Shown: positions 1 through 16,349, numbered from the stretch's first letter. The stretch is DNA of 64,000 nt from a candidate division FCPU426 bacterium (GCA_040756875.1 JBFLYH010000002.1:735078-799077); one strand, 5' to 3'. Translations and numbers: made by a program. The notes: generated by a model not told the origin, from the sequence alone.

Positions 1-886
1 GCCCCGCATCCTTCAAGGCCAGGGCCACCGACTGCCGGGTCCCCCACCCTTCGGGGTGCGGCGTGGACAGGTGGTACGCGTCGCTCGACCACCCATATCC
101 CAGCACCCGGGCGTAGGCTTTCCCGCCCCGTTGCCTCAGGCTCTCGCCGGATTCCAGCACCAGCGCCGCTCCGGCCTCGCCCATGATCAGCCCCCGCCGC
201 GCGCGGTCAAACGGGCGGCAGCAGTCCGGCGCCATGGCCCGCAGGCTGCAAAAGCCCGTGTAATCCGGCTCGGCCAGCAAATCCATGCCGCCGGCCAGAA
301 CCACGTCGGCCAGGCCCTGGCGAATGCGCTCCACGGCCAGGGACAGCGCGTAGCCGCTGGCCGCGCAGGCGTTCGTGTTCGTGCTCTGCCAGCCCGTGAG
401 CCCCAGCCGCTGCGCCATCTGGTAGAGAAAGCTGTAGGTCACGTTCTCGCTCACGATGTCGCGCGTGACCTCCAGGGCGCTGGCCAGGTCCTGCGTTTCC
501 CAGGTCCGCTTGCAGCGCACCACGTGCTCGTTCAGGTCGCCGTGGGTGGTGCCGAACACCAGGTCCACGGCGCCGTGCTGCGAGCGCTGGTCCGCGCCCA
601 GCCACCCCGCGTCCGCCAAGGCTGCCCGGCCGGCCGAGAGCGCCAGCCGCGCCGCCGGATCCAGGGCTTTTTGTTCCTCAGTGCTCAAGTTGCGCAGGCC
701 GTCCAAATCCTTGATCTGCGCGGCCATGTGCACGGGCAGCCAGCGGGTGTCGAAGCGCGTCACCGGGCCCACGCCGGACGTCCCGGCGACCAGGGCCGGC
801 CAGAACGCCTCCGCGCCCGCGCCCAGCGGCGTGTTCAGGCCCAATCCGGTCACATAGACTTCAGGCCTGCCGGCGCGGGCCGTCAT
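1..886 (-). CDS. Beta-ketoacyl-ACP synthase (FabF/KS-like), 5' part; runs off the left edge
   Basis: Not in the ORF track because there is no stop in the window. Hand translation from ATG 886 (ATGA overlap with the lnt stop) gives MTARAGRPEVYVTGLGLNTPLG...GTSGVGPVTRFD...STNTNACAASGYA...CRPFDRARRGLIMGE...WSSDAYHLSTPHPEG. The catalytic Cys is present. Confidence 0.92.
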   Translation of the reverse strand, partial: MTARAGRPEVYVTGLGLNTPLGAGAEAFWPALVAGTSGVGPVTRFDTRWLPVHMAAQIKDLDGLRNLSTEEQKALDPAARLALSAGRAALADAGWLGADQRSQHGAVDLVFGTTHGDLNEHVVRCKRTWETQDLASALEVTRDIVSENVTYSFLYQMAQRLGLTGWQSTNTNACAASGYALSLAVERIRQGLADVVLAGGMDLLAEPDYTGFCSLRAMAPDCCRPFDRARRGLIMGEAGAALVLESGESLRQRGGKAYARVLGYGWSSDAYHLSTPHPEGWGTRQSVALALKDAG

Positions 887-2592
887 GCCGGCCTCTCCTG
901 GCCGGACTTGGAAAAACGCTCGCGCCCCCAGCTCCAGGCCATCATCGCGACCAAAACGGCGGTCAGGCCCAGCACCAGCCATCCCATCCAGTCGCCGCAG
1001 CGCACGTAAACCGTTTTTCCGTTGAGCAGGGGCAGGCGTTTGACCAGCGCCGCGCGCTGGCCGAAGGGCGCGCGGTCGCGGACCAGGCCAAGCGGATCCA
1101 CGTACGCCGCGCTCGCCGTGCTCGAAACCAGCCCGACCCAGCGCCGGGTTTCCACGGCGCGGAAGCAAGCCATCTGCAGGCGCATGTTGAAAAACACCGG
1201 CGTGGGAAACCAGTTGCCCGTGCCGGCGTTCAGGATGACCTCGCCGCCCAGGCGCACGCCCTGGACGAAATACTGAGGAAACATGATTTCCTCGCACACC
1301 CGCAGGATCACCGCGCCCTGCGGCAGCTGGAACACCTTGCTGGCCGATCCAGGCGACAGGTCTTTCATGTCCTCGTCCACGGAGGTAAGCTTGAGCAGTT
1401 CGTAGGTCGTCGCGAAAACACGGTTCAGCAGGCGGATCGCGCCGTTCACCAGCGGCCGGCCGGGCATGTATTCCCCGAAGGGTATGAGGTACTGCTTCAG
1501 GTAATAATCGCGGATCTTTCCCTTCGCGTCGACCAGGTACCAAACATTGAAGCGCCGTTCGGAGTCCAGGGCGGTGACCAGCCCGATGATCGCCGGCACG
1601 CCCGCCTCCTCGAGTATGTCCTGGAAGTCCCGCCACACCTTGGCCGTGGAGGGCAGGGTCAAGGGCAGTGCGCTCTCGGTAAAAACCAGCAGCTCGGCGC
1701 GGTCGGCTTTGGCGTTCAGGGCCAGCCGGCGGAAAAGGACGATGGCGGACTGCTTGATGCGTTCGCTCCACTCGCCATAATTGCCCGCGTCGAACTGCCC
1801 CTGCAACAAGGCCGGACGGAGGCTGCGCTCGGCCTGCGATTGCAGGCGTTCCACCTTGGCCGCGTCGAGGTTGCCGGCCACGATCAGGGCCGCGAAGCCC
1901 AGGCCCAAAACCGCGGCCATCAGGCTGTTGACGAGAAGCGGGCGCCCCTCCGCGGCCGGCACCTTGCCGGCAAGCACGGGCTCGGGCCGGCGCACATCCC
2001 AGGCGCGCAGGAAGCGCCAGGCCAGGAGGGCCAGGCCGGCGGCCACGCACAGCACGAAATAATCAGCGCCCAGCACGCCGGTCAGGGACGCCATTTGCAT
2101 GAGCGGCGGAAGCCCGGCCAGCGGATACGCATACAGCAGAATGGGCGGCGGGAAGAACCAGATTTTGGGCGTCAGCACCAGGCGCAGAAATTCGAAGGCC
2201 GCAAAATTCGCCGGTGCGAACAGCAAATACCAGGCGGGAAAGCGGCGGATGCAGGCGCCGGCCCACAGGCCCACGTTCCCGAAAATGCCGTACACCATGG
2301 CCGCGAGAAAAAGAAAAATCAGCGGCGTGGCCAGGGGAAACGAGGGCAGCATCTCGAACCACAGGGTGGCGGGAATCAAAAACATGGCCAGGCCGGACAG
2401 GCCGCACCAGCGGTAGGCTTCGCGGCCCTGGTAGCGCAGCATAATCATGAAGGTGGGCATTGGCACCAGAAACACCAGCAGCGCGGACAGGATGTTCGAC
2501 TCCGGCAGCAGGTAATTGGGCCACGCGAGATAGGCGCACAGCGCCTGCAGGATCAGCAGCCATGGCATGGGGCGTTTCAACGCGGATACCAT
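883..2592 (-). CDS. lnt: Apolipoprotein N-acyltransferase-like protein (Lnt paralogue 1)
   Basis: Multi-TM N-terminus plus nitrilase-fold motifs FTESALP / YLKQYLIPFGE / RVCEE / RAVE. Start chosen at ATG 2592 behind GGAGG (the ORF track starts at 2637). Confidence 0.88.
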   Translation of the reverse strand: MVSALKRPMPWLLILQALCAYLAWPNYLLPESNILSALLVFLVPMPTFMIMLRYQGREAYRWCGLSGLAMFLIPATLWFEMLPSFPLATPLIFLFLAAMVYGIFGNVGLWAGACIRRFPAWYLLFAPANFAAFEFLRLVLTPKIWFFPPPILLYAYPLAGLPPLMQMASLTGVLGADYFVLCVAAGLALLAWRFLRAWDVRRPEPVLAGKVPAAEGRPLLVNSLMAAVLGLGFAALIVAGNLDAAKVERLQSQAERSLRPALLQGQFDAGNYGEWSERIKQSAIVLFRRLALNAKADRAELLVFTESALPLTLPSTAKVWRDFQDILEEAGVPAIIGLVTALDSERRFNVWYLVDAKGKIRDYYLKQYLIPFGEYMPGRPLVNGAIRLLNRVFATTYELLKLTSVDEDMKDLSPGSASKVFQLPQGAVILRVCEEIMFPQYFVQGVRLGGEVILNAGTGNWFPTPVFFNMRLQMACFRAVETRRWVGLVSSTASAAYVDPLGLVRDRAPFGQRAALVKRLPLLNGKTVYVRCGDWMGWLVLGLTAVLVAMMAWSWGRERFSKSGQERPA

Positions 2593-2608
2593 CCATCCCC
2601 TCCGGGTC

Positions 2609-4273
2609 TCAGGCGCCGGTTTTTCGGCGAGCCGCAACTACGGTCAGCAACAGCGTCAGCAGTACGCACAGCCAGGCAAACACATCTCCGAACCGCGCGT
2701 AAAAAGTCAGGCCGTCAAGCAAGGGCAGGGTCGGCACGGCCACCACCCGCTTCCCATAAGGTGTTTCACTCCGCACCGCGCCCAGGGCGTCGATTGTGGC
2801 CGCCGCGCCCATGTTGGCCACCACCCCGATCCAGCGCCGGGTCTCCACCGCCCGGAAGGCGCTTGTCTCCAGGTTTAAATACCAGTCCACCGGCGTCTTG
2901 AACCAGTTGACGGTCCTGGGCGTGAGAATCACATCGGCGCCTTGCATGACCGCCTGCCTGAAAAACCGGGGAATGATCGTTTCAGTGCATACCTTCAGCG
3001 CCACCCGTGCGCCGGCCACGTCAAATATTTTTTCCTGTTTGCCGGCACGAAGATCATAGTAATCCCGCGGAATGGCCGTAATTTTCAAGACCCGATAGGA
3101 CGTGCGCAAGAGTTTGTTTACTCCCGTCATCACCGGGTCCACCAAGCTGCGCAAGGGCAGGTACTCGCCAAACGGCGTCAGGTAGCGTTTGAGGTAATAA
3201 TCCTGGACCGTTCCCTGGGCGCTGATCAAATACCAGATATTGAAAACCTGCTCCTCCTCCACCGTGGTCGTAAGCCCCACGAAGGCCGGCAGGCCCACTT
3301 CCTTGAAGATGGTGCGGAGGTTCTGCCAGGCGTGCTCGTCCGCCGGCAGGGTCATGGGCAGTGCGTTCTCGGTGAAAACCAGCACCTGACCGCCTTGGGC
3401 CAGGGCTTCCAGGCTCATGTCACGATAGGTGCGCAGGGCAAATCCCTGCTGGGGCCTGCTCCAGTCCTTGGCCCGCGAGGGATCGAACTGGGATTGCAGC
3501 AACGCGGGACGCAGCGTGCGCCGCGCCTGGTCCTGCAGGCGGCTGACGCGCAGGGCGTCTACGTTACCCAGCATGAACAGCGCGAACAAAACCGCCACCG
3601 TGCCGCTGGCCACGGCCACTGTGAGGGTCCGCTGTCCGGGAGCGAGGGCGGGTATGTTCTGGGTGACGGGGAGGTGGGTGCGAAACCACGCCAGGCGGCC
3701 AAGAAGCGACAGCGCGACCAAGGCCAGGAGGGAGCTGATGAAAAAGGCAAGGAAAGCCGGTCCGTAGTATCCGGTGTAGGCGCTCATTTGGATCAGGGGC
3801 GGAAGCCCGGCAAAAGGAAAGGCAAACAACAACGAAGGAGGCGGCACCAGTGAAAAATGCTCGGCCAGCAGCACGCGCATGAACTCCTGGTTGCAAATGA
3901 TGGCCGGCGCCGCCAGGGTGAACGCCCAGGGCAGGCGCCGGTAAATGAACGAACCCAGATAACCGCAGGCGCCTCCCAGCAGAAAGGACAGCGCCAGTAC
4001 CAGCAGCCAAATCAATACGCCGGTCACGGGAAAGAAATTCATATGGACCAGGTGGACGGTCGGCAAAAGAACCATGGCCACTACAGATAATCCGGACCAC
4101 ACAAAAACCTGCCTCCCCCGGTAGGCCAGGAAGATGATGAAGTAGGTCGCGCCCATCAAGGGCAGGAGCAGGGCCGAAACGGGGTTGGGCCGGTAAAGGA
4201 TGGGGTTGGGAAACGCCAGAAAGGCAATCAGCGCCTGGATCAGCAGCAAACTTACGGAGAGAAAGGCTGGCAT
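2609..4273 (-). CDS. lnt: Apolipoprotein N-acyltransferase-like protein (Lnt paralogue 2)
   Basis: Motifs FTENALP / YLKRYLTPFGE / KVCTE / RAVE and the C-terminal TFYARFGD typical of Lnt. Confidence 0.88.
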   Translation of the reverse strand: MPAFLSVSLLLIQALIAFLAFPNPILYRPNPVSALLLPLMGATYFIIFLAYRGRQVFVWSGLSVVAMVLLPTVHLVHMNFFPVTGVLIWLLVLALSFLLGGACGYLGSFIYRRLPWAFTLAAPAIICNQEFMRVLLAEHFSLVPPPSLLFAFPFAGLPPLIQMSAYTGYYGPAFLAFFISSLLALVALSLLGRLAWFRTHLPVTQNIPALAPGQRTLTVAVASGTVAVLFALFMLGNVDALRVSRLQDQARRTLRPALLQSQFDPSRAKDWSRPQQGFALRTYRDMSLEALAQGGQVLVFTENALPMTLPADEHAWQNLRTIFKEVGLPAFVGLTTTVEEEQVFNIWYLISAQGTVQDYYLKRYLTPFGEYLPLRSLVDPVMTGVNKLLRTSYRVLKITAIPRDYYDLRAGKQEKIFDVAGARVALKVCTETIIPRFFRQAVMQGADVILTPRTVNWFKTPVDWYLNLETSAFRAVETRRWIGVVANMGAAATIDALGAVRSETPYGKRVVAVPTLPLLDGLTFYARFGDVFAWLCVLLTLLLTVVAARRKTGA

Positions 4274-4303
4274 GTTTGCTTGCCCTTTCTTCAGTCAGCC
4301 GAT

Positions 4304-4438
4304 ATGGAGCCCTCCGGGCATGCCCGGGGTACCCATTCCTGCCCTGCGTTTCTTGCAGGATAGGCGGCGACATCCTCGCAGCAGAAGATCCGCATTCATC
4401 CCCGGCCATAGGCCGGGGTTTCCTGCGAAGGGGATGAA
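4304..4438. repeat. Intergenic double-hairpin palindromic element
   Basis: Palindrome CCGGGCATGCCCGG (4314-4327); hairpin CCCCGGCC-ATA-GGCCGGGG (4400-4418); TTCATCCCC (4395-4403) is complementary to GGGGATGAA (4430-4438). Confidence 0.55.
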
Positions 4439-4482
4439 GTGGAGCCGCGTCGCGTTTCCGGGCCTTCTCCCAGCGAAGCTGC

Positions 4483-6120
4483 CTACGGACGCCGGGTGGC
4501 GGCGAACGCGACCAACAGCAGTATCACCAATACGCACAGCCAGGCAAACAGGTCGCCGAAGCGTGCGTAAAAAGTCAGACCGTCCAGCAACGGGAGCGTC
4601 GGCACGTCCACCGCCCGTATTCCGTAGGGTGTTTCGCTCCGCACCACGCCCAGGGCGTCGACGGTGGCCGCGGCGCCCATGCTGGCCACCAGGCCGATCC
4701 AGCGCCTGCTTTCCACCGCCCGGAACGAACAGGCCTCCATGTTCAAATACCAGTCCACCGGCGTTTTGAACCAATTGACCGCCCTGGGCGAGAAAAACAC
4801 TTCCGCTCCCTGGTTGACCGCCTGCCTGAAAAACCGGGGGATGGTGGTCTCGGTGCAGACCTTGAGGCTGACCCGGGCGCCGGCCACGGCGAACACCTTC
4901 TCCTCCCGTCCTGCGCCCAGATCGTAATGATCGTTGGGAATGGCGGTGATTCTGAAAATTTTATAGCTCGTGTTGAGCAAGGCGTTTACGCCGCCCAGCA
5001 CCGCATCCACCAATCCGCGCAAGGGCAAATACTCGCCAAAGGGGGTTAAGTACCGCTTGATATAATGATCCTCCATTTCGCCTTGCGCGCTGATCAGATA
5101 CCAGACATTGTACGTTTCCTCGTCTCCCACGGTGGTGATCAGGCCCACGAAAGCCGGCAGTCCGGTTTCCCTGAAAATGCCGCATAAATGCTGCCAGGCC
5201 TGCTGTTCCCCGGGCAGGGTCAGAGGCAGCGCGTTTTCAGTGAACACCAGCACCTGGGCCTGCTTGGCCACGGCTTCGTAGCACATCTGCCGGTAGGTGC
5301 GCAGCGCGAATCCCCTCTGGGGCGGGCCCCATTCCGGAGCCTGGGAAGGGTCGAACTGGGATTGCAACAGGGCGGGCCGGATCACGCGCTGCGCCTCCTT
5401 TTGCAGGCGGCTGAAGCGCATCGCGTCCGCGTTTCCCAGCACAGCCAGGAACAACAGGCCCGCGGCCACGGCCACGGACACCAGGCCGGCCAGCCGGCGC
5501 TGGGGCGCGGTTAAAACCAGATCCGGCTTGATCCAGCCGGCCCGCGCCAGGAATTCCGCCGCAACTTGGGCCAGGACCGCGCCGACGAAAAACACCATGA
5601 GCGCCGGCCCGTACAAACCCGTGAACGCACTCATTTGGATTAAAGGCGGCCAGCCGGCCAGGGGCAGGGACAGGGTGAACGACGGAGGCGGAACCAGCGA
5701 AAAAACTTCCGACAGCAGGACCCGGCCGAATTCCTCGCCGCACAGCAAAACCGGGGCCGACAGGGAAAACGACCAGGGCAAACGCCGGAAGATGAATGCG
5801 CCCAGGGACCCGTAGGCGCCGCCCAGCAGGAACGTCAGGGCGAGCGTCAGCAGCCAGAGCAACGCGCCGGTTACGGGAAACAAACTAATTTGGGTCAGGT
5901 GAAACGTCGGCAACAGGACAACAGCCGCCACGGAGAGTCCGGTCCAGAGAAAAGCCTGGCGCCCGCGGTATAGCAGGACAAATAAAAAAACCGGGGCCAA
6001 CGCGAGCGGCAACAGCAGGGCTGACACCGGATTGGGTTTCATGAGCAGGGGGGTGGGATAAGCCAGGAAAGCCATGAGTGCTTGCACCAGCAATACCAGC
6101 ACAGACACCTGCATCGGCAT
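4483..6120 (-). CDS. lnt: Apolipoprotein N-acyltransferase-like protein (Lnt paralogue 3)
   Basis: Motifs FTENALP / YIKRYLTPFGE / KVCTE / RAVE / TFYARFGD. Start at ATG 6120 chosen by alignment with paralogue 2 (MPMQVSV.. vs MPAFLSV..); GTG 6171 is the alternative. Confidence 0.88.
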   Translation of the reverse strand: MPMQVSVLVLLVQALMAFLAYPTPLLMKPNPVSALLLPLALAPVFLFVLLYRGRQAFLWTGLSVAAVVLLPTFHLTQISLFPVTGALLWLLTLALTFLLGGAYGSLGAFIFRRLPWSFSLSAPVLLCGEEFGRVLLSEVFSLVPPPSFTLSLPLAGWPPLIQMSAFTGLYGPALMVFFVGAVLAQVAAEFLARAGWIKPDLVLTAPQRRLAGLVSVAVAAGLLFLAVLGNADAMRFSRLQKEAQRVIRPALLQSQFDPSQAPEWGPPQRGFALRTYRQMCYEAVAKQAQVLVFTENALPLTLPGEQQAWQHLCGIFRETGLPAFVGLITTVGDEETYNVWYLISAQGEMEDHYIKRYLTPFGEYLPLRGLVDAVLGGVNALLNTSYKIFRITAIPNDHYDLGAGREEKVFAVAGARVSLKVCTETTIPRFFRQAVNQGAEVFFSPRAVNWFKTPVDWYLNMEACSFRAVESRRWIGLVASMGAAATVDALGVVRSETPYGIRAVDVPTLPLLDGLTFYARFGDLFAWLCVLVILLLVAFAATRRP

Positions 6121-6253
6121 TTTCTTTGGGTCCTTTCCTCTGCCGGACGATTCCCGGTACGGCAACTTCACGCCCGTTCCGAAAAACGCCTGCTTTTTTG
6201 GGCTATTCCGGCGCCCGCCAAGCGCCGCGGATTCAAATGCGCCGGATATCCTT

Positions 6254-6291
6254 GAATAATAACATACTTTGCGAGGATCGCCAAAACGTAT
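6254..6291 (-). promoter_or_regulatory. Sigma70-like promoter, copy 1 (upstream of lnt-lnt-lnt-KS)
   Basis: Minus strand reads ATACGTT-TTGGCG-17 nt-TATTAT with TG at the extended -10 position. 32/38 identical, without gaps, to 11348-11385. Confidence 0.75.
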
Positions 6292-6352: not shown

Positions 6353-7531
6353 TTAGGCGGGCAATTCCAGCAGGCAGGCCATGGCTTTGCGATCCTGGTC
6401 CAGGGCCATGACCATGGCCCGCCGGGCGTTCAATGGACGAGCCGTCATAGGCAGGTAAAGCTCGCGCGCGGCCCCAGACGAAGGCAAACGCTGCGTTGGC
6501 AACAGGAGGCGATGCTCGAGGCAGAGAATGGCCAGCACTGCGGCCATGGCACCGGCGGCGTGCCATGTTTCCCCCAGTGCTCCCTTGAGCGCGGTCATGG
6601 GCGGCCGCTGGTTCCCAAAAACGTTTTTCATGCTTTCCATCTCAGCCTGATCCTGCGCCGGATCGCCATTGGCGGCAAGAAAAACCGCTTCCACGTCCCC
6701 GGCCTTCCAGCCGGCGTCAGCCAAAGCCGCGGCGATGGCTTGGTTGCAGGCGCGGGGATCGCCTTGGCCGGCTGCCTCCGGATTATATGCCATGCCAAAG
6801 CCGCATAGCCGGGCCCTGGGGCGCAGCCCCTGTTGACGAGCTTCGTCGGCTCTCAACAAAAACATCCAGGCTGAGCCTTCTCCGAGATCAACGGCGCCCG
6901 GACGCCAGCCCTCCAGGATTCCCGTCCCTGATCCGGGGGGAGCGCCGGGCCCGGAAAAACCCCGCACCATTCTGGCACTGATTTCCTGAACCGCACCGGC
7001 TGCCACCTGCCGGGCCCGGCCGGTGGATAAAACCCGACACGCGGTTTCCAATGCTTCCAGCCCGGCCGTATGCCCGGTGGACATCGTCAAAATGAACGCC
7101 TGGATCCCGAGGAGGATCGACACTTGGCTGGCCGTGGCATTCGCCGACAGATTCAGAAAAAAGAAAGGGCTCATCAGATGATATTCGCGGGTGGACAAAA
7201 CCTGCAGGATGGTGTCGGAATAAATGTCCGGCGTGAATCCGGTCACCAGGCCGGTCTCCGCCGCCGCCGGTGGCTGCCCCGTGTCTTTCGCCCAGGCCTG
7301 CCACAAGCGGCGGCACGCTGCGCCGGCCAGCAGGGACGAACGTGTGAACCCCTGTTTTTTTCCGTTGCCCAGCAACACCCGGAGGTCCTGGGACACCGGG
7401 GCGCTTTCGGTCCCGTCGGACCCGCGTGTCAATCCCTGCCGGCCGGCGGCCAGGCTATCGAAAACCGCCTGCGGGTCGTCGCCCAGGGCATGCACCAGGC
7501 CAAGGTGGGTGATTACGATCGCGTCTTTCAC
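6353..7531 (-). CDS. Non-catalytic ketosynthase / chain-length-factor-like subunit
   Basis: Thiolase/KS fold (VITHLGLVHALG, LGEGSA). The active-site Cys region reads STGHTAG, HGTGT is replaced by AANGD and GH by GE. GTG 7531 overlaps the upstream KS stop (GTGA). Confidence 0.82.
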   Translation of the reverse strand: MKDAIVITHLGLVHALGDDPQAVFDSLAAGRQGLTRGSDGTESAPVSQDLRVLLGNGKKQGFTRSSLLAGAACRRLWQAWAKDTGQPPAAAETGLVTGFTPDIYSDTILQVLSTREYHLMSPFFFLNLSANATASQVSILLGIQAFILTMSTGHTAGLEALETACRVLSTGRARQVAAGAVQEISARMVRGFSGPGAPPGSGTGILEGWRPGAVDLGEGSAWMFLLRADEARQQGLRPRARLCGFGMAYNPEAAGQGDPRACNQAIAAALADAGWKAGDVEAVFLAANGDPAQDQAEMESMKNVFGNQRPPMTALKGALGETWHAAGAMAAVLAILCLEHRLLLPTQRLPSSGAARELYLPMTARPLNARRAMVMALDQDRKAMACLLELPA

Positions 7532-8742
7532 GCAGGCCCGCTTTCGGCCTGCTGCAAGATCAGGCTGAGGTTGTTGCCGCCGAATCCCATGGCATTGACC
7601 ATGCACGTTTCCAGTCTGCCCGCCTTGGGCTCGGACACGACTACGGGCAGCGGACAGTCCGGATCCATCTCGATCGTTTCGGAAACCGGCGGGATCTGTC
7701 CCTCCCGCAGCATGAGCGCCGCAGACAGAATGTCAACCGCCTGGGCCGCGCCCTGTGAATGCCCCACGCGGGGTTTGAACGCCGTGACCGGCGGCAGGTC
7801 CGGACCGAAGACCGCCTGCAGGGCCCGGGCTTCCGCGCGGTCGTTGCTGGGCGTTCCGGTGCCGTGAGCCACCACACAGCTGATCTGCGCAGGCGCCAGC
7901 CGGGCCGCCTGCAACGCGCGCCGCATGGCGGTTTCCAGACCTTCGCCGCGGGGCCGGGGCGCGGAAATATGATAAGCGTCCGCGGACCAGCCTTCTCCGG
8001 CCAGTCGCGCCCACGGCCGCGCGTTCCGGCTCCGCGCGGAATCGGCCGATTCCAGAAGAAACATGGCGGCCGCGTCGCCCAGCATCGTGCCTTCTCGGCC
8101 ACGGTCGAACGGCCGGATGCACGACGGCGCCAGGGCCCGCAGGTTGGCGAACCCGGCCTGCACGACCTCGGCAAACAGGTCCGCAGCCCCGCACAAGACC
8201 GCTTCCGCACGCTCCAGGCGGATGAGGTCCGCGGCCAGGGAAACAGCGTACCCGGCCGCGGCGCAGGTGTTGGTGTTCAACCCCTGGGCCTCCCGCAATC
8301 CCAGCGCCCGGGCCATGTCCGTTAAAAAAGCATAGGGTTGCCGCTCACGAAATCCCGCGCCCAGGGTCTCCTCCGGTTCCCTGCGCAGGTAGTTTTCGCC
8401 GTCATTCAAACCGCCGTTGCTGGTGCCGAGCAGCACGGCGAGGCTAGGCAACCGGCTGCGCCGCTCCTCTGACAGCAGGCGGGCATCCGCCAGAGCCTGC
8501 CGCGCGGCCGACAAAGCGGCGGCGGCGAGCCGGCTGAGGCGTCCGGTTTCCTCCGGGTCCAGCCACTGATCAGCGGCCAATGGCTCGATTTCGGCGCCGC
8601 GAACAAAAGCCAGGCCCTGGGTATTGAATTTTTGTATGGGTTTTATTCCTGAACGGCCTTCCAGGCAGGCTTGCCAATAAGGCGCTACGCCGATTCCCAG
8701 TGGCGTAACCGCTCCCATCCCTGTGATCCAAACATCCCTCAT
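7528..8742 (-). CDS. Beta-ketoacyl-ACP synthase (FabF/KS-like)
   Basis: VWITGMGAVTPLG, NTCAAA (Cys), AHGTGT (His) and KPRVGHSQGA (His) give a complete Cys-His-His triad. Start at ATG 8742. Confidence 0.93.
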   Translation of the reverse strand: MRDVWITGMGAVTPLGIGVAPYWQACLEGRSGIKPIQKFNTQGLAFVRGAEIEPLAADQWLDPEETGRLSRLAAAALSAARQALADARLLSEERRSRLPSLAVLLGTSNGGLNDGENYLRREPEETLGAGFRERQPYAFLTDMARALGLREAQGLNTNTCAAAGYAVSLAADLIRLERAEAVLCGAADLFAEVVQAGFANLRALAPSCIRPFDRGREGTMLGDAAAMFLLESADSARSRNARPWARLAGEGWSADAYHISAPRPRGEGLETAMRRALQAARLAPAQISCVVAHGTGTPSNDRAEARALQAVFGPDLPPVTAFKPRVGHSQGAAQAVDILSAALMLREGQIPPVSETIEMDPDCPLPVVVSEPKAGRLETCMVNAMGFGGNNLSLILQQAESGPA

Positions 8743-8862
8743 GGTTCTTCCTTGTTCGTTTGATCCTGCCACCCGGCCTGCGGGATGGGCATCATGACCA
8801 GGTGCCAAAGCAGACAGGAAGCTTTTGGACCGTATTCGCCGCTTGACGCCGCGTGGAGCCGG

Positions 8863-9174
8863 TCAGCCCGCGCCCCCGCCGCTTTCAGAAGGAGGCGCGG
8901 ACGGCGTCCGGGCTTTATCTTCCATTTTCCGGCGGATGAGCTCGACCACCTGGCCGAGCTGGGTCACCTGTTTCAGATCCTCCTCGGAAAGACCCACGCC
9001 GTAGCGGCGCTCCAGGGTCACCAGGACCTCGAGCAGGGCCACGGAATCGATCTGCATGATCTGTTCCAGTGAACCGTCGAGCCGCACCTGGTCGGGGTCC
9101 ACTTCCAACACCTCGACCACGAGGTCCTTGATTTCCTGTTCCAGATTTTCGGGGATAGGTTTCTGCTCGGTCAT
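8863..9174 (-). CDS. Acyl carrier protein
   Basis: Acidic ~100-aa protein with phosphopantetheinylation motif QIDSVALLE. ATGA overlap with the stomatin gene stop. Confidence 0.9.
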   Translation of the reverse strand: MTEQKPIPENLEQEIKDLVVEVLEVDPDQVRLDGSLEQIMQIDSVALLEVLVTLERRYGVGLSEEDLKQVTQLGQVVELIRRKMEDKARTPSAPPSESGGGAG

Positions 9175-10031
9175 TTCTTCCCCGCCGTGGCTGAACTGAT
9201 CCGCTCAGCCAGGGGTTTCAGAAAACCAAGAAATTCCATGGGCAGAATGTACTTGGCCGCCGGGCTTTCGCCGAGCGCCTTCAGGGCCTCGAGATACTGC
9301 AGGCTGATGGTCTTGTCGTCGATGCGGTTGGCGGCCGCGAAGATTTTTTCCAGGGCCTGGGCATACCCCTCGGCCTTCAGGATCTGGGCCTGGCGTTCGC
9401 CCTCGGCCTGCAAAATCCGCGATTGCCGGTCGCCTTCGGCCACGGTGATGGAAAACTGCTTTTTACCGTCCGCTTCCAGCACCAGGGCGCGCCGGGTCCG
9501 CTCGGCGGCCATTTGCTTGTTCATGGCCTCCTGCACGTCGGCCGGCGGCTGGATCTCGCGGATTTCCACGGTCGTAACCTTGACGCCCCAGCGCTCGGTG
9601 ACTTCGTCCAGTTTGGCCCGCAGCACGCGGTTGATGTCCTCGCGCTTGGCCAGCACGTCGTCCAGGGGAATGTCGCCCACCACCGCGCGCAGCGTGGTCA
9701 TGGCGATGCCCTGCGCGGCGCCGGAGAAATTGCGCACTTGGACCACCGAGTGCACGGGGTTGGTCACCTTGAGGTAGATGAGGAAGTCGATGGCAATGGG
9801 CGCGTTGTCCTTGGTGATGCAGGTTTGGGAGGGGATCTCCAGGAAAATTTCCCGCAGATCGACGCTCACGACTTTATCGATGAACGGAATGATCACCACC
9901 AGGCCCGGCCCGAGCTGGCCCTTGCAGGCCCCCAGGCGGAAGAGCACCAGGCGCTGGTACTCGGGAACGATTTTCACCGCCATCATCACCAGCAGCACGG
10001 CGGCCGCAATCAACGTGGCATAGACACCCAT
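9171..10031 (-). CDS. SPFH / stomatin (band 7) family protein
   Basis: N-terminal TM, then RLVLFRLG...GPGL...ITKDNA...TTLRAVVG...WGVKVTTVEIREI and QMAAER. Confidence 0.95.
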   Translation of the reverse strand: MGVYATLIAAAVLLVMMAVKIVPEYQRLVLFRLGACKGQLGPGLVVIIPFIDKVVSVDLREIFLEIPSQTCITKDNAPIAIDFLIYLKVTNPVHSVVQVRNFSGAAQGIAMTTLRAVVGDIPLDDVLAKREDINRVLRAKLDEVTERWGVKVTTVEIREIQPPADVQEAMNKQMAAERTRRALVLEADGKKQFSITVAEGDRQSRILQAEGERQAQILKAEGYAQALEKIFAAANRIDDKTISLQYLEALKALGESPAAKYILPMEFLGFLKPLAERISSATAGKK

Positions 10032-10050
10032 GACAAGCCTCCCTGGAAAT

Positions 10051-11316
10051 TTATTCCGGCGCGACCGGCCGGACTTTCAGACGCAGTCCCTCGACTGCCT
10101 CGACCACCACGCGCTGGTTGGGCGCCAGCGGGCCGGACTCGCCCGTGGCCAGCCAGTCGTCGCCGGCCACGTGCACGATCACGCCGGCCATGGTTTTCGC
10201 CGTGACTACACCTTGGGCTCCGACCAGGCTTTCCGTACCCGAGATGGCCGGCCGCCGCCTGAGGCGCAGCGCCACCAGCGCGAACAGCATCACATAAGCC
10301 ACGGTCAGGCCGCTCATGGTCGCCAGCACCGACGTGGCCAACCGGAACGAGGGCAGGTCCGAGGGGAACAGCATGAACGATCCCAAAATCAGGGACACGG
10401 CGCCGCCCGCGGCCAAAATCCCGTGGCTCACGACGAATGCCTCCAGCACCAGCAGCACCGCGCCCAAGACCAGCAGGAGCAGGCCGGTGAGCGAGAGCGG
10501 CAGGCCTTCGAAACCCATAAGCGCCAAGAGCAGGCAGATGGCGCCCGCCACGCCGGGCAGGATCGCGCCCGGGCTCGCCAATTCGTAAATCAGCCCGTAC
10601 ACGCCCAGCAGAAACAATACGTACGTCAGATTCGGATTGGACAGGGCGTGCAGCAGCTCCTCGGTCGGCCGCACGGGCACGGGCTGCACCGGCCGGCCGG
10701 CAAGTTCCAGTTGCGGGTCCTTGGCCGCGATCTGCCGCAGCAGATCGTCGACGTCCGGGGCGATAAAATCCGCCACGCCCTGTTTGAGCGCCTCCTCGGC
10801 CGGCAAAGACAGGCTCTTGGTCACCATGCGGCCGGCCGCGTCTTCGTTGCGGCCGCGCCGGCGCGCCAGGCCGACCAGGTAGGCCGCTGCGTCGTTGGTG
10901 ATTTTGGCCGAGGCTTTCTTGCCCTGCAAATCCACCGGGTGCGCGGCGCCAAGGTTGGTGCCGGGCGTCATGGCCAGGTACGTGGCCGCTGCGCCGATGA
11001 AGGCCCCAGCTGAAGCCGCGCGGGCGCCGGCCGGATGCACGTACACCGCGGTGGGCACGGAGGCATTGAGCAGGCTCTTGGTGATGCGCCGCATGGAGGG
11101 ATCCAGGCCGCCCGGCGTGTCCAGAACGAGCAGCACCAGCGCGGCGTCAGCCTTGTGGGCGCGGGCCAGGCCCCGTTCCACGTATCGGGCCAAAATCGGG
11201 TCGATGATGCCTTCCACGTCCAGCCGTATCACCGGTCCGGCGGCCGCCTGGGCCCACCCCGGGAAACCGGCCATAATCAAGGCTATAGCTGCGATCCATC
11301 CCCGTTGTGTTCGCAC
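10051..11316 (-). CDS. nfeD: NfeD-family membrane-bound serine protease (long form)
   Basis: Signal peptide, LDTPGG, AASAG, GAAHPV, a TM bundle and a C-terminal OB-like region. Start at GTG 11316 behind AGGGG; the ORF-track start 11367 lies inside the promoter. Confidence 0.92.
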   Translation of the reverse strand: MRTQRGWIAAIALIMAGFPGWAQAAAGPVIRLDVEGIIDPILARYVERGLARAHKADAALVLLVLDTPGGLDPSMRRITKSLLNASVPTAVYVHPAGARAASAGAFIGAAATYLAMTPGTNLGAAHPVDLQGKKASAKITNDAAAYLVGLARRRGRNEDAAGRMVTKSLSLPAEEALKQGVADFIAPDVDDLLRQIAAKDPQLELAGRPVQPVPVRPTEELLHALSNPNLTYVLFLLGVYGLIYELASPGAILPGVAGAICLLLALMGFEGLPLSLTGLLLLVLGAVLLVLEAFVVSHGILAAGGAVSLILGSFMLFPSDLPSFRLATSVLATMSGLTVAYVMLFALVALRLRRRPAISGTESLVGAQGVVTAKTMAGVIVHVAGDDWLATGESGPLAPNQRVVVEAVEGLRLKVRPVAPE

Positions 11317-11347
11317 GGCAACACCCCTGGGCAGCGAGGATAATAGT

Positions 11348-11385
11348 GAATAATAGCATATTTTCAAGGGATCGCCAAAACGTAT
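11348..11385 (-). promoter_or_regulatory. Sigma70-like promoter, copy 2 (upstream of nfeD-stomatin-ACP-KS-CLF)
   Basis: Minus strand reads ATACGTT-TTGGCG-17 nt-TATTAT with TG extended -10. Near-identical to 6254-6291. Confidence 0.75.
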
Positions 11386-11717: not shown

Positions 11718-14700
11718 TCATTGTCCTCCTGGGACGCGATAAATGCGCACGCCCTGCTGGTCGTAGACCAGGTCCAGCAGGCGGCTGAATTTTTCCAGAC
11801 CCGCGCCAGAATAGGCGCGCCGCTCGTTCTCGCCCACGAACACGTATTTGACGCGGTAGCGCCGCATGAGCTTCAGCGCCTGGCCCACATCCAGCGTGGA
11901 ATAAATCGTATCCGCGTCGCGCGTGTGGCTTGCGGTCAGTTCGGGATGGTAGCGCATCTGCTCTTCCTGCCCCACCCAGCCGATCAGGGTGGGCAGGCCG
12001 GTGAAAATCGCCACGCGCGTGTCGAAGCAATTGTACCCCCGCACGCCCGGCGCTTCCAGCACCACCTCCGTGCGGTCCACATTCTGCCGCAGCCACTCCA
12101 GGGCCGGGGCCTCGCTGCTGAGCAGGTTCCGCAGGTAGGCGAAGCCGTCGAGGGTCGGCCGCTTGAAAGCGGAGCATAGCCGCATGCGGTCGTAGACCGA
12201 CACCGGCGCGTACAGGGCCGCCACCAGGACCACGGCCGCCAGCACGCCGGCCCAGACGGCGCGGGACCACGCCGGCCTCGGCCAGAGCGCCCAGGCCAGG
12301 GGCGCGCCCAAGAGGCTCGCCGCCAGAACCCACGCCAGCCAGGGCCAGCTTTCGGTTTCCTGGAAATAATTGGCCGCGGCCCACAAGGCGAGCACGCCCA
12401 GGCCCAGCAGCAACAGCCGCCACCAGCGGCCGCGGCCGAACAGTTCCTGCCAGCGCTTCCCTTCCTCGCGGGTGCCGGGGAAAAGCCGGGCCAGCAGGCT
12501 GGCGGCCACCAGGGCGAAATAAATCCATACCACCATGTAGAACTTGAACACTGTGTTCATGCGGCTCATGTCGCCGCCCACGCCCATGAAGTCGCGGACG
12601 TGCACCAGCTCGCAGCCCCAGACCACGGCCAGGCCCAGCACGGCCAGCAGCATGGTCAGGCGCAGTTGCGGCGAGAGCGGCTGCCAGCCCAGGCTGTACA
12701 CAGCGGCCAGCAGCAGGAGCGAAAGCACGGCCAGCAGGACCTGGTCGAACATCAGCAACACCACGAGGACCACCAATCCGGAGAGCGCGGCGTACAGGGC
12801 CAGGGGATGCCTGGCCCACACCGTGGCGGCCACGCGCTGCAGGCGCTCCCACCAGGCCAGGCGCGACCGGCTGGCCCAGCCCCACTGCTTCAGCTGGCGC
12901 TGGGCCTGGGGCACGAGCTGCTGGGCCCAAAAAGTGACGGCCAGGAACACCACCAGCCCGAAAAATTCCAAAAACTCCTTGAGGGGCGTGCGCACCGCCG
13001 GATTGACCCAGGCCAAAGAGGTGGATTGCGGTTTGAAGTTCCAATGGAAGAAAAACATCAGCGCCAGGCCGCCCACCACCAGACGCAGCCAGGCCAGGCC
13101 CGCCTCGCCCAGTTCGGCCCAGGGGAAGACGCGCGCCGCGCGGCCCTTGCGTTCCTGGAAGGTTTTAGCCGCCAGCACGCCCAGGCACAGCAGGGCGTAG
13201 GGCGGGAAATTCCAGGTGTTAATCGCGGACAGGGCGCCGAGCGTCAAGGCGGTCACGAAGAAGGCCAGCCCGCGCTCCGTGCCCGTGCGCCCCGGCGCCT
13301 CCAGGAGCAGGCTGCGCTCGCGCGAGGGCGAGAGCAGGTTCATGCCCCAGGCGATCAGTGGCAGGGAGTACGGCATGGCAATAATGTGCGCGTGCAGATC
13401 GCCGTACAGGAACGAGAACCAGGGCATCTCGTTGATGGTGCCCTTGATAAGGCGCGTCGGATTCCAGATGAATTCGAACCGCCCCGCGTGGCGCAGGGCA
13501 TCGCCGAACGTGCGGCCCAGGTTGGTGAAGATATCGCCCACGTGCCAGGCGCGGTTGAACGGCTCCATCAGGTAGAAGAAGGTGTGCAGGTTGCCGGCGA
13601 GCATGGCCGCCCCGGCCGCAACCAGGCCCCAGCGCCGCTTGCCCGTCAGCGCCAGGCCCAGGCCGTACACGCCCGTGAACGTCAAGGCAAACAGCAGGGA
13701 CAGGCAGATCTGATACGACCACTGCGGCGGCACGCCGATCAGCTTGGCCAAAATGCCCAGGATCATCTGGCCGTAATAATAATAGTTGATGGAATAGCCG
13801 GACAGCCACGGATCATAGGGCGGAAAGTGCAGGCTGTGGTACACCGCGGAGAGGAAGGTCACGCCCATGGGCTCGCCGCCGCCGTTGTAGCCCTGGCCGT
13901 AGGGGTTCTTGATGTCCGGATTGTACAGCTTGGTCAGCAGATACAGGACAAAGACCGCCAGAAAAACCGCTTCAGCGACCAGCCACTCCCGGCCGCGCAG
14001 GCGCAGGAACTCGCGGATCTCGACGCGCCGGTGGTAGGCCCACAGCAGCGAGGCGCCGGCCAACAGCAGCAGCACCAGGGCCGAGGTGCCCTGCAGGTGC
14101 CGGGCCAGTCCCGCGGAGACCAGCATCCACACCACCCAGGTGAACACCAGGGTGCCGATGATTTTCGCCAGGGCCAGCCCCGAGTCCGGCAGCCGCGGAA
14201 ACAGGCTCAGGCACAACGGCAGGGCCAGGAGGCCGATGAACTCCACCAGGAGCAGCCAGGCCAGGCTCGCGGTGAAACCGTTGAGCCGGCCCAGCACGAA
14301 CACCGGGCGGCCCTGGGGTTCCCCGATGTTGGCGTTGACCACCGTGGGCAGTTCGCCCGCCGCAGGTTTGACGGCCGCCGGTTTCGGCGCCTGAACGCGG
14401 GCCGGGACTTTTTCGGCCACACGGCGCTGGATCTCGACCACGCGCTCGTCCAGGCGCCGCGCCTGCTCTTCGGGCGCGAGCGGCGGGGATTGCCGCCGGA
14501 AAAGATACACGTGCGGATGGTCGTAGAGCGTGAAACTTTCGTCCGCCGCGTCGTCCGCGAATTCGCGGCCGAAGAGCGAGGGATAATTCTTGAACTCCGC
14601 CGCCAGCTTGAATCCCAGCCGCCCCTCGAACATCAGCTCGTAGTACGCCGCGTTGATAGGGTAGCGCTCGGGCAGGCGGCGGTACACCGCGTGCGCCCGG

Positions 14701-16349
14701 GTGTCGGCCATGACGATCAGGTCGTTGGCCGCGAGCGCCTGCAGGATCATCTCGCGCTTGCGCGGGGTGTCCGGCTCCTGGATGGCCAGCTTGTTCATGC
14801 GGAAAGCCTTGGGCGTGAGCCCGGGCACGTGCGTGGGCAGGTCGTCGCCCCATTCCTCGTTGAGAACGGCCAGGGGCCGGGCCAGGCCGTTTTCCTGGAC
14901 CATGGCCGGCAGCTCCTGCTGGATCCACCGGCTGGCCGCGATCCAGGGGTGCTCGTGCCGGTAAATGGAGGTGAACGCCAGGGCCCACAACACGGTTCCG
15001 GCCAGCGCCAGGCCGATGATCGCCGCGGCCGCCTGTTTCGGCCAGCCGGTTGGGAGCCGCTGCCTGAGGCTTAGTAAAGCGTGGCTGGCCAGCAGGGCGA
15101 AGACCGGGGTCAGGGGCAGCAGGTAGCGGTTGAACTTGGCGAAGGACACGCCGATCAGGCCGAAATAGACCAGCGCGAACCCCAGGACGATCCACCAGGA
15201 CCCGTGGCGCAGCAGCAACGCGCGCAAGGCCTGCCACTGGCGCCGGAACGCCAGGCGCGCGGACTGAACGACACCGATCGCCGGATACGCCGCAAAAGCC
15301 AGCAAGCCCGCCAGACCCAGGGTCCAGCCCACGGTGTACATGAGCAGCTGCTTGATGAAATATATGTAGGGAAGGGTCTTGAGGTATTGGCGGTTGTAGG
15401 GCACGTCCGCCACGCCGGTCACCAAGATCCGGCGCTGCTCGTTCTGGTTGGTCCAGAACTTGTCCCAGTCCAGGAGCGCGTGCGGCATGGCCAGGAAAAA
15501 ACTGAGCGCCCCTGCGCCCACGGCCCAGGCCAGGTCCTGCCAGCGTTGCCGGCGGGCGGCGGGCGGGGCCTGCAGCAGGCCGAAGCCGTGGCCCAGGATG
15601 ACCGATACCGCCAGGGGCGCGGCGCTGGTCTTGGTGGCCGCGGCCAGGCCCAGGAAGACGCCGGTCAGAACATAGGCCTTGCGGCCGCCCTCGCTGGCCA
15701 GGCGCACGGACCAGTACAGCGTGGCAGCCACCAGAAACCCGAGGGGCACGTCCACCACAAAGAAGCGCGCCATTTGGACATTGAGAACCGTGAAAGAGAG
15801 AAACGCCGCGGCCAGGAGCCCGACCCAGGTGCCCTGCCCGCGGGGCGCGAGCCGGCGGCCCAGTAAAAACGTGAACACGATCGTGCCCAGGTCAAAAAAC
15901 CCGGAAAGCATGCGGCCGGCCCAGATCACGAAGCGGTTGGAATCAAAATGGCCGAACCAGCCGGCCACCGTGCTCACTGCGTCTTTGATCATCGCCAGCA
16001 CGTACATGGGGAACGTGCCGTACTGCAGGCCCGTGGGTTCCTGGGGGTAGGAGAGCTGGCTGACCACTCCGAAGATCCAGCGTTCGTCCGGGTGGAACTG
16101 GCGGTCCACGTACCAATCCGGCCGCAGGAAGCGCAGCAGCGCGGCCGCGAGCAGGATGGCGGCCAGCCACAGCCATTCCGGCTGGGCCTCCAGTTGGGCG
16201 CGCCAGCGGTTCCAAACCGCCAGGATGCGGCTGCGTTGTTGGTCCCACCATCCGGCCGGTTTGCGGGCCGGCCGGGGACGCGCTTTATGGACAGACCGGG
16301 GACGCGTTTTGCGGACTGCGCGGGATTTGACTGGGCGGCGGCTGGGCAT
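11718..16349 (-). CDS. Large polytopic GT-C protein: PMT_2/GT39-like domain fused to DUF2298 (YYY) domain
   Basis: N-half QFHPDERWI...GRMLSG..DLGT...FFVVD. C-half GGEPM...FPPYDPWLSGYSINYYYYGQ, TINEMPWFSFLYGDLHAH, RMNTVFKFY, TGLPTLIGW. Confidence 0.85.
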   Translation of the reverse strand: MPSRRPVKSRAVRKTRPRSVHKARPRPARKPAGWWDQQRSRILAVWNRWRAQLEAQPEWLWLAAILLAAALLRFLRPDWYVDRQFHPDERWIFGVVSQLSYPQEPTGLQYGTFPMYVLAMIKDAVSTVAGWFGHFDSNRFVIWAGRMLSGFFDLGTIVFTFLLGRRLAPRGQGTWVGLLAAAFLSFTVLNVQMARFFVVDVPLGFLVAATLYWSVRLASEGGRKAYVLTGVFLGLAAATKTSAAPLAVSVILGHGFGLLQAPPAARRQRWQDLAWAVGAGALSFFLAMPHALLDWDKFWTNQNEQRRILVTGVADVPYNRQYLKTLPYIYFIKQLLMYTVGWTLGLAGLLAFAAYPAIGVVQSARLAFRRQWQALRALLLRHGSWWIVLGFALVYFGLIGVSFAKFNRYLLPLTPVFALLASHALLSLRQRLPTGWPKQAAAAIIGLALAGTVLWALAFTSIYRHEHPWIAASRWIQQELPAMVQENGLARPLAVLNEEWGDDLPTHVPGLTPKAFRMNKLAIQEPDTPRKREMILQALAANDLIVMADTRAHAVYRRLPERYPINAAYYELMFEGRLGFKLAAEFKNYPSLFGREFADDAADESFTLYDHPHVYLFRRQSPPLAPEEQARRLDERVVEIQRRVAEKVPARVQAPKPAAVKPAAGELPTVVNANIGEPQGRPVFVLGRLNGFTASLAWLLLVEFIGLLALPLCLSLFPRLPDSGLALAKIIGTLVFTWVVWMLVSAGLARHLQGTSALVLLLLAGASLLWAYHRRVEIREFLRLRGREWLVAEAVFLAVFVLYLLTKLYNPDIKNPYGQGYNGGGEPMGVTFLSAVYHSLHFPPYDPWLSGYSINYYYYGQMILGILAKLIGVPPQWSYQICLSLLFALTFTGVYGLGLALTGKRRWGLVAAGAAMLAGNLHTFFYLMEPFNRAWHVGDIFTNLGRTFGDALRHAGRFEFIWNPTRLIKGTINEMPWFSFLYGDLHAHIIAMPYSLPLIAWGMNLLSPSRERSLLLEAPGRTGTERGLAFFVTALTLGALSAINTWNFPPYALLCLGVLAAKTFQERKGRAARVFPWAELGEAGLAWLRLVVGGLALMFFFHWNFKPQSTSLAWVNPAVRTPLKEFLEFFGLVVFLAVTFWAQQLVPQAQRQLKQWGWASRSRLAWWERLQRVAATVWARHPLALYAALSGLVVLVVLLMFDQVLLAVLSLLLLAAVYSLGWQPLSPQLRLTMLLAVLGLAVVWGCELVHVRDFMGVGGDMSRMNTVFKFYMVVWIYFALVAASLLARLFPGTREEGKRWQELFGRGRWWRLLLLGLGVLALWAAANYFQETESWPWLAWVLAASLLGAPLAWALWPRPAWSRAVWAGVLAAVVLVAALYAPVSVYDRMRLCSAFKRPTLDGFAYLRNLLSSEAPALEWLRQNVDRTEVVLEAPGVRGYNCFDTRVAIFTGLPTLIGWVGQEEQMRYHPELTASHTRDADTIYSTLDVGQALKLMRRYRVKYVFVGENERRAYSGAGLEKFSRLLDLVYDQQGVRIYRVPGGQ

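Follow-up and report, generated by a model that had tools for sequence, protein, structure and literature searches.

Three tandem Lnt-like genes

The window analysed here is a stretch of 64,000 nucleotides from a candidate division FCPU426 bacterium (GCA_040756875.1, JBFLYH010000002.1:735078-799077). Near its left end three tandem genes with intact reading frames code for proteins resembling Lnt; the names LntA, LntB and LntC were assigned in this analysis. Lnt is a membrane acyltransferase consisting of eight transmembrane (TM) helices and a periplasmic nitrilase-type domain. It attaches the third fatty acid of bacterial lipoproteins and is a drug target. In diderm bacteria this housekeeping reaction concludes lipoprotein maturation, and Lnt is not known to have any other role. 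The three genes described here belong to a rare divergent subfamily and are part of a conserved gene cluster of lipid-synthesis type. All statements on function made below rest on sequence, predicted structure and gene context. The three open reading frames (ORFs) are:

883-2637, minus strand: LntC, C-type subfamily member, 584 amino acids from the TTG at 2637.
2609-4273, minus strand: LntB, B-type subfamily member, 554 amino acids.
4483-6171, minus strand: LntA, second B-type copy, 562 amino acids from the GTG at 6171.

The likelier start of LntC is the ATG at 2592, which has a GGAGG 6 nt upstream and yields a polypeptide of 569 amino acids. With this start LntC does not overlap LntB but follows its stop codon after a 16-nt spacer. 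LntA has an alternative start, the ATG at 6120, giving a 545-amino-acid form identical to entry P0002 of the protein collection; the end coordinate 6120 used in the initial annotation of this DNA corresponds to this start codon.

Family assignment and catalytic residues

All three proteins scored above the gathering threshold (23.2) of the CN_hydrolase family PF00795 (32.9, 37.2 and 36.1 bits; range 32.9-37.2). With TIGR00546, the lnt equivalog model (cut-off 132.9), LntC scored 143.1, LntB 132.3 and LntA 128.6 bits, and in each case the match spanned nearly the full length of the model. Scores with the N-terminal family LNT_N (PF20154, threshold 27.1) stayed below threshold for LntC (19.9 bits) and LntA (17.5 bits), and LntB gave no match.

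Motifs were checked in MAFFT alignments with Lnt of E. coli K-12 (taken from the annotated genome), the other Lnt proteins of the same genome and database relatives. E. coli numbering is used throughout. The initial annotation had described an intact catalytic triad together with replaced substrate motifs, and every motif that it quoted was recovered in the alignments:

LntA: FTEN, KRYLTPFGE, VCTE, PRAVNWF, LVASMGAA.
LntB: FTEN, KRYLTPFGE, VCTE, PRTVNWF, VVANMGAA.
LntC: FTES, KQYLIPFGE, VCEE, AGTGNWF, LVSSTASA.

All three proteins thus retain E267, K335 and C387 of the triad, as well as W237, E343 (of PFGE), E389, R432, W415 and F416. Y388, the neighbour of the catalytic cysteine, is replaced by threonine in LntA and LntB and by glutamate in LntC. 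N412-D413-A414 reads A-V-N in LntA, T-V-N in LntB and T-G-N in LntC, and N445-N446-G447 reads S-M-G, N-M-G and S-T-A, respectively. The alignments also revealed differences that the initial annotation does not mention. G145-F146-P147-W148, which follows TM helix 5, is changed to P-P-P-x, and W265-P266, preceding the catalytic glutamate, to F-T. About 17 additional residues lengthen the stretch from E343 to C387, which contains arm 3 (the lid loop 345-365); the insertion point corresponds to P361/M362 of E. coli. Arm 7, which precedes W237, is longer by 2-3 residues.

The triad is present not only in the three window proteins but also in all 15 further copies found in genomes. Of the residues classified as essential in E. 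coli (PMC3850990; PMC5500890), the window proteins retain W237, E343 and E389 but not Y388; including the triad, this makes six of the seven. Judged from the alignments, the signature shared by 22 protein rows and the 15 further genome copies is not the product of chance. LntA, LntB and LntC are Lnt homologues with an Lnt fold (see below), but they were not filed as Lnt equivalogs because several family-wide motifs and one residue essential in E. coli fail.

Rarity of the substitutions

When 1.84 billion representative proteins were searched with a profile of the subfamily, 20,092 Lnt-like matches were obtained at E <= 0.001. Only 14 full-length representatives of the subfamily (381-884 bits) and two fragments were among them; the next protein scored 181.6 bits. 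For the comparison of individual positions, groups were defined by this score gap and by the tree described below, not by the motifs themselves. The subfamily group contained 22 rows. The canonical group contained 155 rows, namely the 135 next-best matches, 17 matches from a separate search and the three other Lnt proteins of the genome. Because this set consists of the closest Lnt-like proteins, the following contrast between canonical and subfamily rows is conservative:

Position 388 aromatic: canonical 151 of 155; subfamily 0 of 22 (D in 11, T in 3, E in 3, I in 2, N, G and A in 1 each).
N412: canonical 144 of 155; subfamily 1 of 22.
D413: canonical 132 of 155; subfamily 0 of 22.
W265: canonical 144 of 155; subfamily 0 of 22 (F in 20).
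G145: canonical 123 of 155; subfamily 0 of 22 (P in 20).
W148: canonical 139 of 155; subfamily 0 of 22.
T446: canonical 132 of 155; subfamily 2 of 22 (M in 18).
G447: canonical 153 of 155; subfamily 15 of 22.

Four family-wide motifs, GFPW (145-148), WPE (265-267), T/S-N-D (411-413) and N-T-G (445-447), are each conserved in 121-153 of the 155 canonical rows, whereas the subfamily has replacements in them. The distance between E343 and C387 was 60-62 residues in all 21 subfamily rows in which this region is intact. In the canonical rows the median was 43, and a distance of at least 60 was found in only 2 of 154 rows. The initial annotation had named, as an outcome that would speak against its proposal, that the same substitutions be common among ordinary Lnt proteins. 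They turned out to be rare there, as the aromatic residue at 388 (151 of 155 versus 0 of 22) illustrates.

It had also been proposed that the replacements remodel the substrate pocket. The list of cavity residues given by Lu et al. 2017 (PMC5500890) includes several of the replaced positions (G145, F146, W148, D413, Y388) and arm 3, which agrees with the proposal. An enrichment of replaced positions in the cavity list, examined for the 77 positions that are conserved in at least 75% of the canonical rows and of which 19 are replaced in the subfamily, was not found (see below). The remodelling thus includes elements of the pocket but is not confined to them.

A single clade with a variable number of copies

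In a maximum-likelihood tree of 54 rows, all 26 subfamily rows fell on one side of a branch with a support of 100 in the Shimodaira-Hasegawa-like approximate likelihood ratio test (SH-aLRT) and a stem length of 1.69 changes per column. Together with the gap in the profile scores (381 versus 182 bits), this supports the suggestion of the initial annotation that the proteins form a distinct subfamily. LntB pairs with its orthologue (76% identity) in the nearest relative, L009. LntA is sister to the LntB group (support 89) and is 66% identical to LntB. LntC falls into a separate C-type set; it is 77% identical to its L009 orthologue and about 41% identical to LntB. According to the tree, the three copies go back to an old B/C duplication and a later duplication of B.

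The ratio of nonsynonymous to synonymous substitution rates (dN/dS) was 0.15 for LntB versus its orthologue, 0.21 for LntC versus its orthologue and 0.24 for LntA versus LntB, rough values since dS is about 0.8-1.0 and thus near saturation. These estimates indicate purifying selection on the subfamily genes. With the triad and six of seven essential residues kept and selection purifying, catalytic competence of the three paralogues is plausible. Two metagenomic members of the clade, P0036 and P0037, which are sister to P0029, lack E267, C387, E343 and W415/F416 and are apparent pseudo-enzymes. They demonstrate that dead forms exist in the subfamily, but it is very improbable that the window genes encode non-catalytic scaffolds or are decaying duplicates, given that the three window proteins and the 15 other genome copies keep E267, K335 and C387, that the frames are intact and that dN/dS is 0.15-0.24.

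Of the ten carrier genomes, six have one copy, two have two and two have three. The division of labour between paralogues that the initial annotation had envisaged is consequently not a general feature of the subfamily, and one Lnt-like copy is sufficient in most relatives. The three copies of the window may serve different chains or acceptors.

Fold and topology

The initial annotation had suggested comparing predicted models with Lnt structures. An AlphaFold2 model of LntB built from an alignment of 146 sequences reached a predicted local distance difference test score (pLDDT) of 94.2 and a predicted TM-score (pTM) of 0.94. (A model from a nine-sequence alignment had a pLDDT of only 60.4 and was unusable.) When the LntB model was used as Foldseek query, the top 20 listed PDB entries were all Lnt structures of E. 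coli or P. aeruginosa, with 18-20% sequence identity and TM-scores of 0.71-0.76 (query-normalised) or 0.75-0.84 (target-normalised). Next came soluble amidases and carbamoylases of the nitrilase superfamily, with TM-scores of 0.34-0.37. The predicted structure thus corresponds to the full-length Lnt fold, with an eight-TM domain and a nitrilase domain.

The distribution of positive charges over the loops between the helices of the model followed the positive-inside rule: nine lysine or arginine residues were counted in the predicted cytoplasmic loops and one in the short loops of the predicted periplasmic side. The catalytic domain is thus expected on the periplasmic side, where it also lies in Lnt. 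Because of this predicted topology acyl-ACP (ACP, acyl carrier protein), which the initial annotation had considered as a donor besides phospholipid, is unlikely to be the direct donor.

The architecture, the fold, the predicted topology, the triad and the residues W237, E343 of PFGE, E389, R432, W415 and F416 are shared with the Lnt enzymes of E. coli and P. aeruginosa (PDB 5N6H, 5N6M and 8B0L, among others). At 18-20% identity the subfamily differs from these enzymes in the changes of GFPW to PPPx, of W265-P266 to F-T, of Y388 to D, T or E, of T/S-N-D-A to x-x-x-N and of N-T-G to S/N-M-G, in the lengths of arm 3 (longer by about 17 residues) and arm 7 (by 2-3 residues), and in that its genes lie inside a cluster with ketosynthase (KS), chain-length factor (CLF) and ACP genes and are additional to canonical lnt.

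Canonical lnt genes in the same genomes

Three further lnt genes, all canonical, were found in the 3.2-Mb genome, with TIGR00546 scores of 274.7, 273.3 and 255.9 bits, so that it holds six Lnt-like genes in total. It also contains one lgt and one lspA gene. The positions of the canonical lnt genes are:

G000:C1:879392-880618.
G000:C2:1076571-1077818.
G000:C2:1099431-1100711.

Likewise, all five subfamily-carrying relatives that were tested have two or three canonical lnt genes (257-312 bits) beside their subfamily genes (126-158 bits). Housekeeping N-acylation of lipoproteins is therefore probably not the task of the subfamily. Two of the three canonical proteins of the genome form a pair of their own, with ICYED and with MTGP instead of NTGI, and one of this pair has PGGE where PFGE would be expected. 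In the nearest relative, one canonical lnt match (G032:C1:297947-299185) lies inside an open frame of 1,285 codons, possibly a fusion with another domain.

The conserved gene cluster

The Lnt-like genes are surrounded by genes of fatty-acid or polyketide type. The order on the minus strand is SPFH, ACP, KSalpha1, KSbeta1, LntA, LntB, LntC, KSalpha2, KSbeta2, hot-dog protein, PlsC-type acyltransferase, FabG-like ketoreductase (KR) and CinA. The window ends within KSalpha2, and the genes downstream of it were located on the contig (G000:C2). Besides the three genes listed above, the cluster contains:

8863-9174, minus strand: ACP, PF00550 42 bits, DS phosphopantetheine site as aligned with E. 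coli AcpP.
7528-8808, minus strand: KSalpha1, FabF-like, Cys-His-His intact, TIGR03150 281 bits (below the cut-off of 493.75).
6353-7606, minus strand: KSbeta1, N- and C-terminal ketoacyl-synt domains (Pfam), H/A/E at the Cys/His/His positions of FabF, chain-length-factor type.
1-886, minus strand: KSalpha2, first 295 codons, running off the left window edge, Cys-His-His kept.
733514-734716 on G000:C2, outside the window, downstream: KSbeta2, none of the three catalytic residues.
G000:C2:733006-733485, about 1.6-2.1 kb left of the window start: hot-dog protein, 159 amino acids, FabZ-like, no Pfam match, TIGR01750 40.7 bits.
732316-733002 on G000:C2, outside the window: PlsC-type acyltransferase, HX4D present.
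731524-732276 on G000:C2, outside the window: FabG-like KR.

Start and stop codons overlap as ATGA between SPFH and ACP and between LntC (stop 885-883) and KSalpha2 (ATG 886-884). The PlsC-like protein gave a weak match (37 bits, far below the cut-off) to the acyl-ACP:phospholipid acyltransferase model. In alignments with FabF the active sites of KSalpha1 and KSalpha2 are intact, and KSbeta1 and KSbeta2 lack all three residues, like chain-length factors.

A core consisting of ACP, one to three Lnt-like genes, hot-dog protein, PlsC, KSalpha, KSbeta and KR recurs in relatives. It was found in the nearest relative, in metagenome-assembled genomes labelled Candidatus Firestonebacteria and Candidatus Goldiibacteriota, in further genomes of the same order and on metagenome contigs; genomes seen twice among the records were counted once. 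Within the phylum, the subfamily is present in 10 of 99 species genomes, all belonging to two families of one order. KSbeta occurs in 11 of the 99, the same ten and one genome that is 87% complete. Fifteen of the 16 subfamily copies in the ten genomes are inside the conserved cluster and one is a lone copy. In the window genome and one relative the presence of several copies goes together with a second KS/CLF pair; in the others it does not.

The locus searches differed in reach. A single-protein search of genome contigs found nothing and an alignment-based search was needed, which in turn missed six carrier genomes found by the later genome search and is thus not exhaustive. In a metagenome scan, the best 80 loci contained one full subfamily locus, apparently identical to a locus from one of the genomes, and one fragment.

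What the cluster may make

Among solved structures, KSalpha2 is closest to 9S5H chain B (275.7 bits) and 6KXD (268.4 bits), the latter presumably the ketosynthase of ishigamide polyene synthesis. For KSbeta2 the corresponding entries are 9S5H chain C (110.6 bits) and 7F27 (100.7 bits). Both 7F27 and 7F28 belong to published work on the ketosynthases of aryl-polyene synthesis (PMC8358021). The combination of KS/CLF and KR without an enoyl reductase (ER) suggests that the chain made by the cluster is polyene-like or hydroxylated; the loss of the FabZ histidine from the hot-dog protein speaks against this.

The cluster shares with aryl-polyene and ishigamide-type clusters a free-standing ACP, a KSalpha with a dead KSbeta, a FabG-like KR, a hot-dog protein, a PlsC/LPLAT-type acyltransferase and the lack of an ER. 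The aryl-polyene counterparts are ApeO/ApeC for the KS-CLF, a ketoreductase, a dehydratase and the LPLAT protein ApeD. Unlike aryl-polyene clusters, the window cluster lacks an aryl-starter enzyme, a methyltransferase, a thioesterase, a glycosyltransferase and export proteins of the LolA/MMPL type, and its hot-dog protein lacks the catalytic histidine.

Proposed function of the Lnt-like proteins

We propose that LntA, LntB and LntC are catalytically competent members of a rare divergent Lnt subfamily which is a fixed part of a small lipid-synthesis cluster, and that they move a chain made by the cluster by way of a periplasmic cysteine thioester; we give this proposal an even chance of being right. 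The occurrence of a rare subfamily inside a private cluster of fatty-acid/polyketide type means that a special lipid chain is probably attached rather than a housekeeping job done. The altered donor or acceptor specificity put forward by the initial annotation was an inference. A change of specificity would be favoured mainly by the conserved ACP/KS/CLF/PlsC/KR cluster, of which that annotation was unaware.

In E. coli, Lnt transfers the sn-1 chain of phosphatidylethanolamine (PE) or phosphatidylglycerol (PG) to C387 and from there to the alpha-amino group of the lipoprotein (PMC10313180). The lysolipid is flipped back by LplT and re-acylated on the cytoplasmic face by Aas, a member of the PlsC family (PMC11416262). 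The window cluster resembles this cycle in combining a putative periplasmic consumer of sn-1 chains of the Lnt type with a putative cytoplasmic reloader of the PlsC family that would use acyl-ACP, although the parallel is inferred and the cluster has neither an LplT-like flippase nor an acyl-ACP synthetase domain. Because the cluster encodes both ends of such a cycle and in addition a private chain-making system, a mechanism of four steps is proposed. The KS/CLF system would build a special acyl chain on the cluster ACP in the cytoplasm, and the PlsC/Aas-like acyltransferase would load it onto a glycerolipid or lysoglycerolipid. After flipping of the lipid, the active-site cysteine of the Lnt-like protein would take over the chain as a thioester, as in the first ping-pong step of Lnt. 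Finally, the chain would be passed to an amine or another nucleophile of the envelope. The acceptor could be the N-termini of lipoproteins or a different molecule.

It is the second reaction step that appears to be changed. The Y388W variant of E. coli Lnt remains able to form the acyl-enzyme, yet it has no activity, an observation that implicates step 2 (PMC5500890). Bound PE is covered by arm 3, and arms 3 and 7 part to let the peptide leave (PMC10313180). The rebuilding of residue 388, arm 3 and arm 7 in the subfamily thus points, by analogy with the E. coli enzyme, to an altered second step.

More tentatively, since we rate it below an even chance, no Lnt-type enzyme before these might have had an acyl donor of its own: a polyketide-like or otherwise unusual chain made by KS/CLF and loaded onto phospholipid by the PlsC/Aas-like enzyme would be transferred in the periplasm to lipoprotein N-termini or to a non-protein amine of the envelope, with B- and C-type proteins handling different chains or acceptors. 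The cluster would then be a self-contained lipidation module that charges its carrier in the cytoplasm and transfers the chain outside.

Several observations weigh against the proposed role. The canonical rows of the comparison are the Lnt-like proteins nearest to the subfamily profile and not experimentally verified Lnt. The replaced positions were not enriched in the cavity list (5 of 19 replaced versus 13 of 58 kept; Fisher p = 0.76). Mycobacterial Lnt is functional with only five of the seven residues that are essential in E. coli (PMC3850990), and single deviations are hence no proof of a new function. The hot-dog protein lacks the catalytic histidine of FabZ, with the glutamate kept, in all 11 orthologues (that of the window genome and those of L009, L011, L012, L091, L092, L094, L095, L097, L098 and L100), and it may not be a conventional dehydratase. 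No ER domain was found among the cluster genes scanned, and the genes from ACP to CinA, the part of the genome searched for them, include no starter-activating enzyme, thioesterase, flippase or exporter. The missing histidine and the absence of all these functions from the cluster leave no basis for predicting what kind of chain is made. Finally, the TIGR00546 scores are at or near the cut-off, which LntC passes and LntB misses by 0.6 bit, so that ordinary Lnt activity may still be present.

This last point would be explained if the proteins were extra housekeeping isozymes which transfer ordinary phospholipid chains to lipoproteins, like Lnt1 and Lnt2 of Streptomyces, in a neighbourhood of fatty-acid genes that has no meaning. 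The retention of the triad, W237, E343, E389, W415 and F416, the common fold and the known occurrence of several Lnt homologues per genome (PMC3850990) are consistent with this explanation. We nevertheless consider it unlikely. Three canonical lnt genes are already present in the genome; the long stem and the score gap set the subfamily apart; 15 of 16 copies are in the same cluster, with co-occurrence with KSbeta in 10 of 11 genomes; and Y388, essential in E. coli, is aromatic in none of the 22 subfamily rows.

Equally improbable in our view is a hydrolase or non-amine transferase, in which water or a hydroxyl group would resolve the cysteine acyl-enzyme, resulting in a phospholipase-A1-like or amidase-like release of the cluster-made chain or in its re-esterification, e.g. 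onto a glycolipid, instead of an amide bond. The nitrilase superfamily is mainly hydrolytic, amidases and carbamoylases were the Foldseek matches following Lnt, the Lnt-typical motifs T/S-N-D and N-T-G are lost, and an acidic or polar residue stands in place of Y388 beside the cysteine. The fourth residue specific to Lnt, E343 of PFGE, is kept, however, as are W237, W415 and F416, which favours transfer by an Lnt-like enzyme over hydrolysis.

Additional Lnt paralogues whose role is not plain N-acylation of lipoproteins are also known from actinobacteria (Streptomyces Lnt2 and M. bovis BCG_2279c; PMC3850990). BCG_2279c differs from the window proteins, which keep the cysteine, by a C387S replacement, and the available part of that report mentions no link of the actinobacterial paralogues to a ketosynthase cluster. 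Among the papers listed in a literature search, judged by title and abstract, likewise none describes an Lnt-type gene in a ketosynthase or aryl-polyene cluster. What is new here is the association of Lnt-type genes with a conserved ketosynthase cluster; the Lnt family and its fold are already known. If the proposal of a cluster-made chain is true, the Lnt scaffold has been re-aimed at other donors or acceptors, with the catalytic machinery kept and residue 388 and both gating arms rebuilt. The subfamily would then offer natural variants for the study of Lnt specificity, altered in Y388 and arm 3, to which a part in the second step is ascribed. It would also hint that envelope lipids or lipoproteins carry a modification not yet described in this groundwater lineage, which is uncultured.

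Other features of the loci

In the 181-nt gap upstream of LntA there is a sigma-70-like promoter match:

6256-6284, minus strand: TTGGCG-17-TATTAT, with TG.

Three promoter-like sites were observed in the region upstream of LntA and 1.5 were expected, so the match is no more than a weak hint.

At L093:10818-19646 (G027:C27) the lone subfamily copy lies beside an ORF of 2,942 codons and three small ORFs, none of which has a Pfam match. In another carrier genome (L091:365-8706, G026:C108) the cluster is split by an insert of about 8.6 kb that contains genes for a phosphoenolpyruvate-utilising enzyme, an IS200-like transposase fragment, HEPN, a response-regulator-TIR protein (CAP12/Pycsar-type) and ORF6N. 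It looks like a mobile or defence insertion. Neither the neighbours of the lone copy nor the genes of this insert gave a hint at the function of the Lnt-like proteins.

Directly upstream of the window cluster an NfeD-SPFH (band 7) pair occupies 9171-11367 on the minus strand, an adjacency that, apart from the window genome, was observed in the nearest relative alone. Farther upstream, a membrane protein of 1,543 amino acids with PMT_2 (GT-C type) and DUF2298 domains is encoded at 11718-16349 on the minus strand, followed by a UbiA-like fragment at 16353-16961.

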